NCBI GenBank assembly: GCA_003228815.1
Contig: QIGB01000011.1
Coordinates: 174 to 64,173, forward strand
Origin: Chlamydiota bacterium
Lineage (GTDB): Bacteria; Chlamydiota; Chlamydiia; Chlamydiales; Rhabdochlamydiaceae
Direction: 5' to 3'
Length of the DNA: 64,000 nt
Below are positions 18,027-53,074 of the stretch, piece after piece. A model generated the notes under the pieces. That model was not told the DNA's origin. It saw nothing but the letters and a program-made list of their open reading frames with translations, and did no database searches. Each line of letters starts with the position of its first letter. Within the stretch, counting starts at the first letter, position 1. The position numbers were made by a program, and so were the translations under genes.

Positions 18027-18133
18027 TAACTCAACTTGTCCATCGATGGTGAACAAATAAGTCCATGCGCTTTAAGCCAAGACATTCGTCGTGAACGTGA
18101 TCAATTGAGAAAAAAGGCAAAATATGGGTCTAA

Positions 18134-18292
18134 GAGTCTGTCTGTGAATTGCTTTTACCAGAGGGAACAAAGATTTTTTCCTTGGAAGATTTTCTGGAAA
18201 CCGGAGCGAGCTTTGATAAGCTCGTTGAAGAAAGGCTTCCAAGGGAAAAAGATTGTTTCCAATCCTGGTGAAATGAATTCACAGACAGACTC
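18134..18292. repeat. MITE-like hairpin element (159 bp), related to family B
   Basis: Perfect 17-bp TIR GAGTCTGTCTGTGAATT (18134-18150 vs 18276-18292), flanked by TAA on both sides. Has a nested internal palindrome (TTTTTCCTTGGAAG / CTTCCAAGGGAAAAA). Confidence 0.8.
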
Positions 18293-41110: not shown

Positions 41111-42169
41111 TTATGCTATAGTCACCTCGGGGCATAGATAAACGTTTTGGATGGCGCCGAGCAATTCAACCCCTTCTTTCAAAGGACGCTGGAATGCCTT
41201 CCTACCTGAAATGAGACCCATTCCACCGGCACGTTTGTTGATCACAGCGGTTTCCACAGCCTGCTGCAGGTCATTTTCTCCGGAAGCACCACCAGAATTG
41301 ATGAGTCCCACACGGCCCATGTAATCATTAATCACCTGATAACGGGTCAAATCAATGGGATGCTCGGTGCAAAGTTCGGTATACATTGCTTCGGTCTGCT
41401 TCCCAAAGTTGAGCATTTTAAAGCCGCCGTTGTTTTCTGGGAGTTTTTGCTTCACAATGTCAGCTTCTATCGTCGCTCCGAGGTGATTGCCCTGACCAGT
41501 CAGATCCGCTGCAACGTGATAATCGACTTTGGGGGTTTTGAACTCAGAATTGCGCAAATAACACCACAACACCGTCGTCATCCCCAATTCATGGGCCATT
41601 TGAAACGCCTTGCTGACCTCAACAATTTGTTTGCGGCTTTCCTCAGAACCAAAATAGATCGTCGCACCTACCGCCACACAGCCCATTTCATAGGCCTGTT
41701 TCATGGAAGCAAACATGATTTGATCATGAATATTGGGATAGCGAAGAAGTTCATTATGGTTGAACTTCAAAAGAAACGGAATTTTATGAGCATATTTACG
41801 AGCCATTATGCCGAGCACACCCAGAGTAGTGGCCACAGCATTGCATCCCCCCTCGATGGCGAGTTTGATAATATTTTCCGGGTCAAAATAGTCGGGATTT
41901 TTGGAAAAAGAAGCCCCTGCAGTGTGTTCAATCCCCTGATCAACCGGTAAAATTGAGAGATATCCTGTTCCCCCTAACCGTCCATGCCCAAGAAGCGTTT
42001 GGAGGCTACGAAGGACTCGAATATTACGATCAGAAGGACCAAAAATCCGATCGACCCAATCGGGACCTGGAATATGCAGTTTATCTTTGTGAATCGTTTT
42101 GCATTCATGCCCGAGCAAAAATTCGGCTTTGTCTTCTAGCATCTTTTGAATTTCGCTATATGAAACCAT
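41111..42169 (-). CDS. fbaB: Class I fructose-bisphosphate aldolase (DhnA/FbaB type)
   Basis: The [11 protein letters not shown]...GPDWVDRIF...[16 protein letters not shown] block matches E. coli FbaB/DhnA-type aldolases. Start at ATG 42169 with GGGAGA upstream. Confidence 0.85.
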
Positions 42170-42229
42170 ATGGATCTCCCTGTTTTTTCCGATTCTAAAA
42201 AATGAATTGTCAAATAGCAAGAAGATTAA

Positions 42230-42392
42230 GAGGGTGTATGCGAATTCATTCCCCCCGGTATAGGAGCTCTCTTTTTCCCTAGGAGAAGCTCTTCAAACTC
42301 CACAAACTCGATTTGAGTTTGCTCCGTTTGAAGAGCTTCTCCTAGGCAAAAATATTAGCTCCCCCCGAGGAAAGCAATTCGCATACACCCTC
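42230..42392. repeat. MITE-like hairpin element, family B copy 1 (163 bp)
   Basis: Perfect 17-bp TIR GAGGGTGTATGCGAATT (42230-42246 vs 42376-42392), flanked by TAA on both sides. Has a perfect nested 21-bp palindrome (42278-42298 vs 42326-42346). The right edge overlaps the rimO stop codon. Confidence 0.85.
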
Positions 42393-43780
42393 TAAGAAAT
42401 CACAGCTAAAGGCGAAAGTTTCCTTTTGGGAACTATTGGGCCCAATGCAGTTCCGATTAAATCATAATCGATGACATCAGTAATCTCTACTTCATGCAAC
42501 CGTCCCAATGATTCAACTGCGCGCGCATCATTGATGATCACCTGACCGTCCATATCGGGACATTGGCCATAAAAGCGGCCCTGCAGAAGAAATTCAGACT
42601 CAGGGTGGACGCTTTCGACCATCACCTCAAGAGTTTTTCCCACATACCCGCGATTGCGCGCAACTATGATTTCCATCTGCGTCTGCATGAGAATTTCATA
42701 ACGCCCCTGTTTGATTGTTTCGGGAAGTTGACCCGGCAACTTCGCAGCATGGGCACCTTCTTCAGGAGAAAAAGTAAAGACTCCAACATTGTCGAGAGGA
42801 TACTCTCGGATAAAAGAGACAAGCTCTTGAAATTGCTCATCAGTTTCCCCTGGAAAACCAACCATCAGACTCGTCCGGATCACACACTCAGGAATACGCG
42901 TGCGCAGCAGCTCATAAGTCTTGATAATATGATCTCGATTGGTTTTTCGCCGCATCCCCTTTAAGATCGCAGAGTTGATGTGTTGGATCGGCATATCCAG
43001 ATAAGGCAAAAGGCGCGGATCGCTATTGATGACATCTACAAGTTCATCCGTCACTTCATCAGGATAGAGATAGAGGAGTCGAATCCAATACTCCCCTTCC
43101 ACCTTGAGCATTTCCCGCAATAGTTTTTCGAGAGCCCCTTTTTCCTTTCGTTCCCTTCCATAATCTCCCAAATCCTGGGCAATCAGAATGATTTCATGCA
43201 CCCCTTGTGCAAGCAAACTTTTAAATTCATGGATGACTTGCTCCTGCGGCTTGCTTTTAAGGGGTCCCTTAATCGTCGGGATGATGCAAAAACTACACCG
43301 CTTCGCACATCCTTCAGCAATTTTGAGATAGGCATAATGCTTAGGTGTTGCCAATTGACGAGGAATCTCCCCCCACTGAAGATAGCTACGAGCAGAGGTG
43401 ATCTCTTCCCCAGTCTCGCTAGAGGCGAGCGCCTCGAGAATTTTTTCTAAATCACCAGGTCCTAGCATATAATGAATCTGAGGAAAGGTCTCTTTGAGGA
43501 TTTGGCTATGTTTTTGGACCATGCACCCGGCAACGATCACTTTCGCCTCCGGTTTCTTCAAGGCGAAAAGTTCTTCAATTGTATCGAGCGCTTCTTGGCG
43601 TGCTGATTCCAAAAACCCACAGGTATTGATGACGAGATAGTCTGCCTGCTCTTCATTTCCAGTCACTTCATAGCCAGATTTGAGGACAAGCCCTAGCAGA
43701 ATTTCGGTATCGACGAGATTCCTCGAGCACCCCAAGCTAGTAAAGTGAATTTTATTTCCATTTTGCAAAAGCTTTTCCAT
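42392..43780 (-). CDS. rimO: Radical-SAM methylthiotransferase, RimO-like (MiaB family)
   Basis: N-terminal SLGCSRNLVDTE...INTCGF, radical SAM box EGCAKRCSFCIIP, and a C-terminal TRAM-like domain. Confidence 0.75.
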   Translation of the reverse strand: MEKLLQNGNKIHFTSLGCSRNLVDTEILLGLVLKSGYEVTGNEEQADYLVINTCGFLESARQEALDTIEELFALKKPEAKVIVAGCMVQKHSQILKETFPQIHYMLGPGDLEKILEALASSETGEEITSARSYLQWGEIPRQLATPKHYAYLKIAEGCAKRCSFCIIPTIKGPLKSKPQEQVIHEFKSLLAQGVHEIILIAQDLGDYGRERKEKGALEKLLREMLKVEGEYWIRLLYLYPDEVTDELVDVINSDPRLLPYLDMPIQHINSAILKGMRRKTNRDHIIKTYELLRTRIPECVIRTSLMVGFPGETDEQFQELVSFIREYPLDNVGVFTFSPEEGAHAAKLPGQLPETIKQGRYEILMQTQMEIIVARNRGYVGKTLEVMVESVHPESEFLLQGRFYGQCPDMDGQVIINDARAVESLGRLHEVEITDVIDYDLIGTALGPIVPKRKLSPLAVIS

Positions 43781-50502: not shown

Positions 50503-51027
50503 ATGAAAATAAAAAAAATATTCTGTTTAGCAATTTTACTTTCATCCTCTTTTTTTCAATTACATGGAGAAGAAATTCCCATCACCCTAGAAAAAGAAAA
50601 AGTAGATATCCATGATCGCTACGGGTATTTCACATATGGTTTTGGACTTCCTGGAATATTTGGTTTAAATCTCGGGATGCGAAATCAACACAATCATCAT
50701 GGCTTTGAATACGGGGTAGGAGTCGTCCCCTTGATTTTTGTCTATGAGATACATGCCTTTACTAGTTATTTGTATTATCCCTCCCCTTCGCTTGAATCCC
50801 AATTCTATTTTGGCTTAGGTCTTAGAGGAGGTTATGCAAATTTAACGAATAATAAGTGGGAAAAAGGGGAAGGTTATGCTGCTCCGGGAATGATTTTTGG
50901 AAAAAGCTATCACACAAAAGAGGAAAGTTCCCGCTTTTTCCAAGTTGCTTTCTCGCCTGCAGCTTTTGCAAAAAAGAAAGTTCGATTTGCCCCTTCAATC
51001 AACGTCTCATATGGATATTGTTTTTAA
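50503..51027 (+). CDS. Small outer-membrane beta-barrel-like protein (174 aa)
   Basis: Signal peptide MKIKKIFCLAILLSSSFFQLHG, alternating Gly/aromatic-rich strands, and a C-terminal aromatic residue (..SYGYCF). Confidence 0.6.
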   Translation: MKIKKIFCLAILLSSSFFQLHGEEIPITLEKEKVDIHDRYGYFTYGFGLPGIFGLNLGMRNQHNHHGFEYGVGVVPLIFVYEIHAFTSYLYYPSPSLESQFYFGLGLRGGYANLTNNKWEKGEGYAAPGMIFGKSYHTKEESSRFFQVAFSPAAFAKKKVRFAPSINVSYGYCF

Positions 51028-51191
51028 GAGGGTATATACGAATTCATTCCACCGGCATGGGAGCTCTCTTTTTCCCTAGGCGAAGCTCTTCAAACTCCAC
51101 AAACTCGATTTGAGTTTGCTCCGTTTTCCAGAGCATTCTCCTAGGAAAAAATATTAGCTCCTCCCGATGAAAGCAATTCGCATACACCCTC
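51028..51191. repeat. MITE-like hairpin element, family B copy 2 (164 bp)
   Basis: TIR GAGGGTATATACGAATT vs AATTCGCATACACCCTC (2 mismatches), flanked by TAA on both sides. The left TAA is the stop of the 50503 CDS, and the right edge overlaps the stop of the 51191-53074 CDS. Collinear with copy 1. Confidence 0.85.
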
Positions 51192-53074
51192 TAAGGGATT
51201 TGAGTATAGCTTGAAGTGACAAAGACTCGACAGGGAGACTGGCGCAAGATTCTCTCTGTGATCACGCCTAGCCCTGCATGAGGATCTTCCTTAGACTTCA
51301 TCGCTCCTAGAACAAGCAAATCAAATTCTTGGTCCTTTAAGAACTGAAGGATCGAATGCTCAATTTGCCGAGCCCTTAGAATTTTTGTCTCGATCTCTAC
51401 TCCAAATTCCCTAGCGATGGCTTCAGCCCTTTGCAATACAGATTCTCCAATGAGATATCGATAGGGCATAGGAGATGCGAGAGGCAATGAATAGGGCACC
51501 TGAATAAAGTGTACTGCTGTCACCTTGGCTCGATGCACTTTTGCAATTTCACAGGCCATCTGTACTGTTTCCGTCTCAGGCCCTCCCTTTGTGGGAACGA
51601 GAATATTTTTAATTTCAATAGGTTGAAAACCGGGAACTTTGACTTTTTCTACCTTGACTTGTGCTGTGGGAGCAATTTTTTTCCTTCTTCTGTAAAGAAA
51701 ATACATCAGTAATCCAAAACCCATCCAGGCAAACCCGAGATAGCGACCGTCAGGCTTTGTCACGACGACAAGAATCCAAACTGCAAAAGTAGAAAGAGCC
51801 CCAACGATTGCCGTCAAAGGCAAAGACACGTCCCTTGAAATCTTGATGTTTAAGGGAGCTTTGAAAGGACGTTCCAAATGCGGCTGTTTGATGCGCAGGA
51901 CAATCAGAGAGAGATGAGCAGAACAGAAAGCAAGCATAGCACCAAAGTTATAGAGATCTGCCAAAAAATGGAGTTTTCCGCGACTCCAAATAATCACAAG
52001 GGCTGCAAAAACTGCAAAAATAGCGAGCGGAACAATCGGAGTGCGATATTTCTTGTGTGTCCGATAGAAAAAACGGGGCAACTGATAGTATTCACCCATA
52101 TTAAAAGACAGTCGAGAAGCTCCCATCAGTCCCGCATTGCCAGCCACAAATAAAAGCGCTGCAGCAAGAACCCCCACCCAAGGAGCCAAAAATTTCCCGC
52201 CAAAAGGGAGATTGTTGACAATCCCCAAAATGGGATTATCCATATATTTTGTTCCTAGCTCTTGAGGAGTCATGAGAGAAAGCCCAATAATCGAAATCGC
52301 TAAATACATGACGATCAAAACACTCATCACCATCATGACTGCACGGGGAAGCGTTTTCACTGGGCGTTTAGTCTCAGAGCCCAAATTGGCAAGAGATTCG
52401 ATTCCTGTATAAGCTACCATAGCCATTGCAGTTCCTTTGAGGAAACTTTCCCATGTAGGCGACCAATTTGCTTGCACACCAATTTTCATCTTCTCAAAAA
52501 CTGCTGCTATATCGATTCCCCCTACAAGAGCAAGGACAAGAATCAGTACCTGCATAAAAAGAGCAATCCCAGTAAGGACCATACTAATACGAGTAGAATG
52601 TTGGACCCCAAAATAATTGATGATAAAGAGAACGCCTATGATTCCGACAGAAATACCTAAATGAACAAAAACATTTCTCGTCCCCTCATAAAAAAAAGAG
52701 AGATACGGCAAAATCGAAAAAATCGAAATGGCAATCGTCACGATAAAATCGAGCAAAAGTCCCCATCCAGCAATGAAAGACACAAGGTCATTGAAAGCAA
52801 GACGAGCAAAACTTGCTGAACCGCCAGAAATCTTTGTCATCGCGGTCATCTCTGCATAAGTTAAACACGTACAAACAAAAACCAATCCGGCGAGAAGAAG
52901 AGAAATCGGAGCTGCACCTAAAGAAAATAACGCAGTGATTCCAAGAGCATAAAAAATGGACGACCCAAGATCTCCATAGGCAACAGCAAAAAGATCCGCT
53001 ACACCAAGCGTACGACTTAAGTGTTCTCTTTCTAGTCGGGCAATGCTGCCTCGTTTTTCATCGGCCATGCCCAC
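51191..53074 (-). CDS. APC-family amino acid permease fused to a C-terminal universal stress protein (Usp) domain
   Basis: About 12 TM segments with an N-terminal APC block (DLFAVAYGDLGSSIFYALG). The C-terminal approx 140 aa follows the Usp pattern (ILVPT.G.....Q.A...A.......V.....LLVLG....). Confidence 0.8.
   Translation of the reverse strand: MGMADEKRGSIARLEREHLSRTLGVADLFAVAYGDLGSSIFYALGITALFSLGAAPISLLLAGLVFVCTCLTYAEMTAMTKISGGSASFARLAFNDLVSFIAGWGLLLDFIVTIAISIFSILPYLSFFYEGTRNVFVHLGISVGIIGVLFIINYFGVQHSTRISMVLTGIALFMQVLILVLALVGGIDIAAVFEKMKIGVQANWSPTWESFLKGTAMAMVAYTGIESLANLGSETKRPVKTLPRAVMMVMSVLIVMYLAISIIGLSLMTPQELGTKYMDNPILGIVNNLPFGGKFLAPWVGVLAAALLFVAGNAGLMGASRLSFNMGEYYQLPRFFYRTHKKYRTPIVPLAIFAVFAALVIIWSRGKLHFLADLYNFGAMLAFCSAHLSLIVLRIKQPHLERPFKAPLNIKISRDVSLPLTAIVGALSTFAVWILVVVTKPDGRYLGFAWMGFGLLMYFLYRRRKKIAPTAQVKVEKVKVPGFQPIEIKNILVPTKGGPETETVQMACEIAKVHRAKVTAVHFIQVPYSLPLASPMPYRYLIGESVLQRAEAIAREFGVEIETKILRARQIEHSILQFLKDQEFDLLVLGAMKSKEDPHAGLGVITERILRQSPCRVFVTSSYTQIP

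Follow-up and report, generated by a model that had tools for sequence, protein, structure and literature searches.

A palindromic MITE family in a chlamydial genome duplicates TAA or TTA target sites and frequently lies on stop codons

Introduction

Why do short palindromic elements in a chlamydial genome lie exactly on the stop codons of their neighbors, with TAA on either side? The question arises from a window of 64,000 nucleotides (the whole stretch of DNA analysed, C2:174-64173) in a 1.71-Mb draft genome consisting of 107 contigs with 43% G+C. A first-pass annotation of the window described three such elements, here called B1, B2, and G. It interpreted the flanking TAA as a target-site duplication of 3 bp (or of the dinucleotide TA), and it proposed that a preference for TAA targets explains why the elements land on stop codons and end up between convergent genes. 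MITEs in Chlamydiae were the subject of a full-text literature search, which found no paper describing them.

Results

Elements in the window and their junctions

The window contains three complete copies and one solo end, with the following features.

17414..17437, plus strand: solo end fragment of the same MITE family (GAGGGTGTTTATAAATTGCTTT), which supplies the stop of ORF 16289-17437 and the eight codons before it
18131..18133: left TAA duplication of G
18134..18292: MITE copy G, 159 bp, subfamily GAGTCTGTCTG, in the spacer of co-directional genes and off any stop codon
18293..18295: right TAA duplication of G
42227..42229: left TAA target-site duplication of B1
42230..42392: MITE copy B1, 163 bp, a near-perfect palindrome, with the rimO stop on one side and the promoter region of the aldolase on the other
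42393..42395: right TAA duplication of B1; on the minus strand, its TA and the terminal C of the element (42392) give the TAG of rimO
51025..51027, plus strand: left TAA duplication of B2, which doubles as the stop codon of ORF 50503-51027
51028..51191: MITE copy B2, 164 bp, with convergent genes on either side
51192..51194: right TAA duplication of B2; the permease/Usp gene takes its TAG stop from this repeat together with C51191

Reading the junctions confirmed that B1, B2, and G are each bracketed by TAA. With hyphens marking the boundaries, B1 (element 42230-42392) reads gat-TAA-GAGGGTGTATGCGAATTC...GAATTCGCATACACCCTC-TAA-gaaa, and B2 reads ttt-TAA-GAGGGTATATACGAATTC...GAATTCGCATACACCCTC-TAA-ggga, in which the left arm has two mismatches to the consensus. 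G (element 18134-18292) reads gtc-TAA-GAGTCTGTCTGTGAATTG...GAATTCACAGACAGACTC-TAA-agcc. A link between a 13-mer to the right of B2 and the ends of family A was considered and is probably due to chance.

The rimO gene (42392-43780, minus strand) encodes UPF0004, Radical_SAM, and TRAM domains. Its TAG stop is read from CTA at 42392-42394, which consists of the last C of the element and the TA of the repeat. A TAG built in the same way, at 51191-51193, ends the amino-acid permease/Usp gene (51191-53074, minus strand), and the left TAA of B2 is indeed the stop of the coding sequence that begins at 50503. The stop codons described in the first-pass annotation thus agree with the junctions. Its placement of both B copies between convergent genes applies to B2 only, because the gene across B1 from rimO, a DeoC-type aldolase (41111-42172), is also on the minus strand and B1 is flanked by co-directional genes. 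The aldolase has a promoter-like site just past the left end of B1.

Copy number and distribution of the family

B1, B2, and G belong to one palindromic MITE superfamily of 160-165 bp, with ends that are probably of the IS5-family type. End-to-end alignment of all copies gave this single superfamily, divided into three or more subfamilies (GAGGGTGTATGCGAATTC, GAGTCTGTCTGCGAATTC, and GAGGGTGTTTGCAAATTC), and identity among copies within a subfamily is only about 88-95%. The elements have terminal inverted repeats of 17-20 bp (GAGNNTGTNTGNGAATT paired with AATTCNCANACANNCTC). They are short and multi-copy, and at 160-165 bp they leave no room for a transposase gene; in several copies no reading frame is open from end to end. 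These are the features of MITEs.

The 1.71-Mb genome has approximately 45-50 copies and fragments. A profile built from 20 full-length copies gave 52 non-overlapping matches, a few of which represent a related family with different ends. The true copy number is higher, because several contigs stop inside a copy. The end motif GAGNNTGTNTRYRAATT occurs 50 times in this genome, compared with 0 times in a control in which the motif was read backwards, and the exact motif is absent from the genome outside the MITE copies. Three genomes of the same genus have 33, 18, and 4 occurrences, and 27 other relatives have approximately none.

The family is also present in at least five related MAGs. Chlamydial MAGs carrying it in public records are Candidatus Sacchlamyda saccharinae RhabSjap6, K1000_chlam_2, K1000_chlam_3, HKST-UBA11, and HK-STAS-VERR_A-6. 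Scans of public genome and metagenome contigs for the end motif returned pairs 147-165 bp apart, and nothing but MITE-sized spacings was found. The MITE family itself is undescribed; the kind of element and its mechanism are well known.

Target-site duplication

Collecting the copies and inspecting their flanks, as the first-pass annotation had proposed, showed that 3-bp repeats prevail. A perfect 3-bp direct repeat flanks 27 of the 30 full-length copies in this genome (TAA 14, TTA 11, TCA 2), and the chance of identical flanking trinucleotides is about 1 in 64. Relatives have a perfect 3-bp repeat at 18 of 19 copies (TTA 12, TAA 5, TGA 1). When this genome and its relatives are pooled, 45 of 49 full-length copies have a perfect 3-bp repeat (TAA 19, TTA 23, TCA 2, TGA 1), which means that TAA or TTA accounts for 42 of the 45 perfect duplications. 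Additional metagenome contigs have a 3-bp repeat at 19 of 22 copies.

In the target logo, oriented on TAA, 24 of 40 sites have C at position -1, and 34 of 40 have a purine (A or G) at position +1. The target is thus TNA with a flank preference, C-TAA-R, and is not strictly TAA. Head-to-tail pairs of elements were found in contig C36 and in several contigs of relatives; they have a lone TTA or TAA between the two elements and one on each outer side. The repeat is shared in this tandem layout (element-TTA-element-TTA), as expected if one element had inserted into the duplication beside another already in place.

Empty sites and orthologous genes

Empty sites allow the sequence before insertion to be read directly. 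Related genomes have a single TAA at the junction in two genes (7-8 congeneric species), and the 3-bp duplication is proven by these exact empty sites. The gene for LL-DAP aminotransferase carries a 165-bp copy and reads CCG CC-TAA-GAGACTG...CAGTCTC-TAA-AGAAAGA, and the orthologue reads CCA CCT AAA GAA AGG, a base-exact empty site with a single TAA. The resulting 56-residue insert is absent in eight relatives. The best PDB matches of the aminotransferase are 6oxm, 3qgu, 2z1z, and 3asa. The second gene encodes a secreted TPR/transglutaminase-like protein, in which a 165-bp copy lies directly after the signal peptide; it is absent in seven congeners, and one copy of its repeat has since mutated to TGA.

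At the B1 locus, rimO and the aldolase gene are adjacent in three congeners, and the spacer is 18-78 bp and free of the element. The insertions in the rimO spacer, the LL-DAP aminotransferase gene, and the TPR protein gene are all lineage-specific. Removing the element and one repeat from rimO gives GTG ATT TCT TAA with the same last residue; therefore, the original stop was TAA, and insertion turned it to TAG and left the protein unchanged. Orthologous RimO proteins from genomes without the element were compared at their C-termini (SPLAVIS here; SPLSLIT, SPLAIC, and SPLQLI in element-free orthologues), and they end within two residues of the reconstructed end. The first-pass annotation held that identical 3' ends in genomes lacking the element would argue against a duplication, but this expectation was misconceived, since the duplication model predicts the same last residue.

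There is no direct empty site for B2, where synteny of the left neighbor (ORF 50503-51027) is not conserved in congeners. The permease C-termini of congeners vary in length, and the permease described here falls inside their range. No polymorphic empty site that would point to current activity of the MITE was found; two public contigs encoding an identical RimO are filled or broken inside the element.

Two other explanations of the flanking bases were weighed against a 3-bp duplication. MITEs of the IS630/Tc1-mariner type, for example Correia or Stowaway-like elements, duplicate the dinucleotide TA, and the third base would then belong to the element. The first-pass annotation had raised this option; TA is present inside every TAA or TTA flank, and one copy (C13:9171-9373) contains a nested MITE of another kind, flanked by true TA. 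However, direct repeats of 2, 4, 5, or 6 bp fit no copy among the 30 full-length ones, of which 27 fit 3 bp, and with the boundary shifted by one base the two sides no longer agree (TA and AA). The two genes with empty sites also gained the element plus exactly 3 bp (168 nt, 56 codons), so a TA duplication fails and is almost certainly wrong. REP/RAYT and IS200/IS605-type elements recognize or carry flanking sequence that is not duplicated, and the flanking TAA or TTA could likewise be part of the element (an extension of the inverted repeat) or a fixed recognition sequence. The long hairpin resembles those elements, and no DDE transposase partner was found. Nevertheless, the flanks are always direct (TAA..TAA or TTA..TTA) and never inverted (TTA..TAA), and they are therefore not an extension of the terminal repeat; the trinucleotide differs among copies (TAA, TTA, TCA, TGA), and the empty sites retain one copy as ordinary coding sequence (CCT AAA). 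This explanation is highly improbable. A 3-bp target-site duplication with a preference for TAA, as first proposed, is upheld by 45 of 49 copies and by the two exact empty sites.

Stop codons and gene ends

Statistics on stop codons rest on genes called crudely from ORFs (1478 genes, 87% coding). The duplication overlaps the stop codon of a neighbor in 10 of 29 insertions (34%). The expectation from non-disruptive TAA/TTA sites is 10% (p ~4e-4), or 11% when sites are weighted by flank context. Barring sites in the 50-150 nt ahead of start codons lifts the null to 14-19% (p 0.004-0.03). Copies at a 3' end or no more than 35 nt after it number 19 of 29, compared with 23% expected (p ~1e-6). The sample behind this gene-end excess is 29 related insertions with crude gene calls.

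The proposal that a TAA preference explains landing on stop codons is therefore correct in part. The preference makes stop codons eligible, but it is insufficient alone (34% against the 10-19% expected). Selection for harmless positions, which are scarce in so compact a genome, probably accounts for most of the remaining excess, and some preference for gene ends may be left over after both effects. Whether purifying selection is sufficient, with no targeting of stops or gene ends past the TNA preference, is a closer matter, and we lean slightly toward it. The null expectation climbs and the p-value weakens once promoter-proximal sites are barred, and there is no orientation bias at 3' ends (10 copies in the same sense as the gene and 9 in the opposite sense). 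In the B1 spacer, the rimO stop lay about 9 nt from a -35-like box of the aldolase, so few other sites were available. Some excess is nonetheless seen under every null that was tried, and copies cluster within 35 nt of 3' ends.

Hairpin and in-frame copies

As RNA, B1 is predicted to form one hairpin (-113.6 kcal/mol, z = -15.8). Covariation was assessed in 16 copies of the subfamilies, in which 31 of 48 stem pairs have changed on both sides with pairing kept. Paired cells amount to 92.8%; shuffling lowers this to 78%, and sliding the partners lowers it to 33-49%. Rfam gave nothing above gathering scores, only sub-threshold matches to generic hairpins (miRNA precursor), and there is no T-run after the main stem.

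The modal length of the element is 165 bp, which together with the repeat gives 168 nt or 56 codons, and in several copies the T-AAG phase is open in at least one orientation. Inside genes, three 165-bp copies maintain an open frame; about 3 of 30 copies are intragenic, and most of the others lie at gene 3' ends. The three in-frame copies are found in the genes for LL-DAP aminotransferase and the secreted TPR protein and at the start of murG, where the copy lies nine codons into the gene and its end could supply an ATG. When the aminotransferase is modelled with AlphaFold, its fold is preserved (pTM 0.76). Residues 159-212 are placed with low confidence as a loop lying between a pair of strands, and the insert comes out as disordered, at pLDDT 23-36. 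No in-frame intragenic copies were found among approximately 35 copies in relatives.

These features raise the possibility that the element is kept for a function, either as a 3' hairpin that ends transcription or stabilizes mRNA or as a peptide-loop module. The whole stem is maintained by compensatory changes, the hairpin is very stable, copies cluster just after stop codons, and the three in-frame copies leave their genes open. The palindromy may instead serve transposition, either by giving each arm the same binding site or by way of a hairpin intermediate. Orientation bias and a T-run behind the main stem, as noted, are both lacking, and each insertion that was tested is missing from all congeners, so that none is conserved. 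A retained function is accordingly unlikely.

Search for a transposase

Within the IS5 family, the preferred target of the IS1031 group is 5'-TNA-3', and the repeat that it produces is exclusively 3 bp (PMC12016507). The MITE has the same kind of duplication, a 3-bp direct repeat with the consensus TNA. Its end shares 10 of 17 positions, including GA..CTGTCT, with the inverted repeat of ISLrh from Lacticaseibacillus rhamnosus (GAACCTGTCTAGTATCT; PMC12016507), and its first 8-9 nt are identical to those of the inverted repeat common to ISPg4 (IS5 family) and MITEPgRS (GAGACTGTTGCA; PMC4596501). Both counts come from by-eye comparison with two published repeats.

Domain searches for an autonomous partner used PF01609, PF13359, and PF13586 and covered this genome, 30 relatives, and two further carriers; none with MITE ends was found. 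DDE_Tnp_4 (PF13359), the Harbinger-type transposase domain, has 0 matches in the genome. PF13586 (DDE_Tnp_1_2/DUF4096 type) has none in the genome and none in four other carrier genomes. One truncated IS5-type gene (PF13586) was found in the relative G007, and it has different ends (GAACCTGTTCAAAA-TAA). The PF01609 matches look like IS4-, IS1380-, IS1634-, or ISAs1-type transposases from their sequences. Four PF01609 genes were searched for inverted repeats and none had MITE ends; the one clear pair was CTCTGTACTGGACAAAAA. Solo ends and the termini of resident insertion sequences were inspected as well, and no autonomous partner with MITE ends emerged. Overall, no cognate transposase flanked by MITE ends was found in the same and related genomes or in public genome and metagenome contigs, and the IS5 assignment therefore rests on the type of duplication and on partial end similarity. 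An autonomous copy could be unassembled, because most carriers are fragmented drafts whose contigs often break in repeats.

Discussion

Transposition in trans is the mechanism we propose for this family. These elements are hairpin MITEs that duplicate TAA or TTA, and it is likely that an IS5-family transposase of the IS1031/IS427 type moves them in trans and that stop codons serve as silent targets. From the ends and the duplications we infer a DDE-enzyme mechanism of the IS5 family. The transposase would bind the element ends, make a 3-nt staggered cut at TNA, and join the ends there, and gap repair would produce the duplication. The element starts with G and finishes with C. A TAA stop that is hit directly is kept as the retained TAA, and a stop hit one base aside becomes TA plus G, or TAG, so that insertions on stop codons are silent for the protein. 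With 87% of the genome coding by the crude gene set, stop codons make up a large share of the harmless TAA sites, and copies therefore pile up at gene 3' ends. Elements are also found at an out-of-frame TAA in a gene (xxT AAx), where a 165-bp copy adds exactly 56 codons open in that phase and leaves the gene intact.

A MITE family is now documented in environmental Chlamydiae, and it offers a clean case in which target preference and terminal bases together render insertion into stop codons silent. The finding is useful rather than surprising, because the element kind and mechanism are already well known. It matters for annotation: copies break assemblies, create spurious ORFs, change TAA stops to TAG, and place 56-residue loops in genuine enzymes, LL-DAP aminotransferase among them. 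With the in-frame copies, Rickettsia-like "selfish DNA inside genes" reaches a second obligate intracellular lineage.

Rickettsia palindromic elements (RPE) insert in frame in unrelated housekeeping genes and add a peptide (PMC10969869). The MITE resembles them in being a palindrome of about 150 bp in an obligate intracellular host with in-frame placement, a comparison made by description. Like RPE, it forms open inserts of 56 codons in LL-DAP aminotransferase and the TPR protein that are missing in orthologues. It differs from RPE in lying mostly at gene 3' ends and in having clear terminal inverted repeats and a TNA duplication. One reading would make the family more than a parasite in decay and the chlamydial counterpart of RPE, built for harmless insertion at stop codons or in frame, with a moving enzyme that is external or of an unrecognized type; we consider this quite unlikely. 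If it were true, the element would supply new protein loops, C-termini, and even start codons. Three features speak for this reading: the compensatory stem, the 56-codon length open in the T-AA phase in either orientation, and the re-targeting of resident duplications.

The preferred reading, an IS5-type MITE with a TNA target, places the family beside three known groups. The IS1031 and IS427 groups share the TNA target and the 3-bp repeat, and by eye their inverted repeats of about 17 bp resemble those of the MITE in opening with GA(A/G)NCTGTCT (GAACCTGTCTAGTATCT in ISLrh and GAGTCTGTCTGCGAATT in the MITE; PMC12016507); those elements are about 860 bp with a transposase gene, whereas the MITE is 160-165 bp, has none, and is wholly palindromic. 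The IS5-family MITEs of Porphyromonas gingivalis (MITEPgRS/MITE464 and BrickBuilt) have IS5-type ends of the ISPg4 kind that look similar (GAGACTGTTGCA, compared with GAGACTGTCTGCAAATT here), but BrickBuilt has irregular flanking repeats (2-5 bp), a minisatellite, a host from another phylum, and a different internal sequence (PMC4596501). PIF/Harbinger elements are relatives of IS5 with TWA duplications, and among them NuwaII prefers C-TNA-G (PMC4482050). Tourist-like MITEs and PIF/Harbinger elements (PHIS) thus resemble this family in their 3-bp TWA duplication (42 of 45 here) and in a target context close to C-TAA-R. They differ in having eukaryotic hosts and, in many cases, two ORFs, whereas the host of this MITE is a chlamydial bacterium.

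MITE sequence within and at the ends of genes

Outside the window, three protein genes in the same 1.71-Mb draft genome (G000; contigs numbered C) carry an open copy of the MITE, the palindromic element of copies B1, B2 and G, and within the window one gene ends in a fragment of it.

MITE-derived sequence in genes
C23:10348-10512 (locus L047): 165-bp copy, in frame, LL-diaminopimelate aminotransferase gene
C30:6391-6555 (locus L149): 165-bp copy, in frame, TPR/transglutaminase-like protein gene
C1:29634-29798 (locus L280): copy open in frame, murG
Window 17414-17437: solo 22-nt MITE end fragment, same family as B1, B2 and G

The copy adds 56 residues to the aminotransferase, an insert missing in eight relatives; in the structural model the added segment forms a disordered loop that links two strands. 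The insert in the TPR/transglutaminase-like protein lies immediately behind the signal peptide and does not occur in seven congeners; one of the repeat copies of this element has mutated from TAA to TGA. The murG copy is positioned nine codons past the conserved start, and the MITE end GGTGAAATGAATTC could instead supply a new start codon 10 codons ahead of the GGTGGH motif region. The solo fragment provides the last eight codons (SEGVYKLL) and the stop of the ORF at 16289-17437. Directly right of B2 (window 51195-51212), the 13-mer TTTGAGTATAGCT codes for part of the C-terminus of the amino-acid permease; at 1739-1751 the same 13-mer is the end of a family A element, a match that may be due to chance.

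Tandem, nested and duplicated copies

Tandem MITE pairs with one TTA or TAA between the elements
G000, C36:16902-17200
Related genome G005, loci L044 and L045
Related genome G007, locus L120

The MITE appears to re-target the duplication flanking a resident copy, the context of which (C|TWA) agrees with its target preference (C|TAA|R). At C13:9171-9373, a copy of the G-type subfamily holds another, different MITE nested within it, with ends TAGTGAATTAAATCTAAAATGATA and flanking TA. Two further copies (C38:7529-7693 and C38:9849-10013) are separated by 2.3 kb and have identical flanks; they seem to stem from a segmental duplication that took the MITE with it, rather than from two independent insertions.

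Related elements

Hairpins matched by the inner part of the profile built from 20 full-length MITE copies
C14:4253-4389
C37:18171-18307
C45:11644-11791
C47:4957-5093

The resemblance of this related hairpin family is confined to the inner profile, and its ends (cattgcat|AACT...) are unlike those of the MITE.

IS5-type remnant
G007, C110 (locus L032:259-648): truncated IS5-family transposase gene (DDE_Tnp_1_2), end GAACCTGTTCAAAA followed by TAA

The ends of this transposase remnant are not those of the MITE, and the gene is the sole IS5-type remnant detected in the genus.
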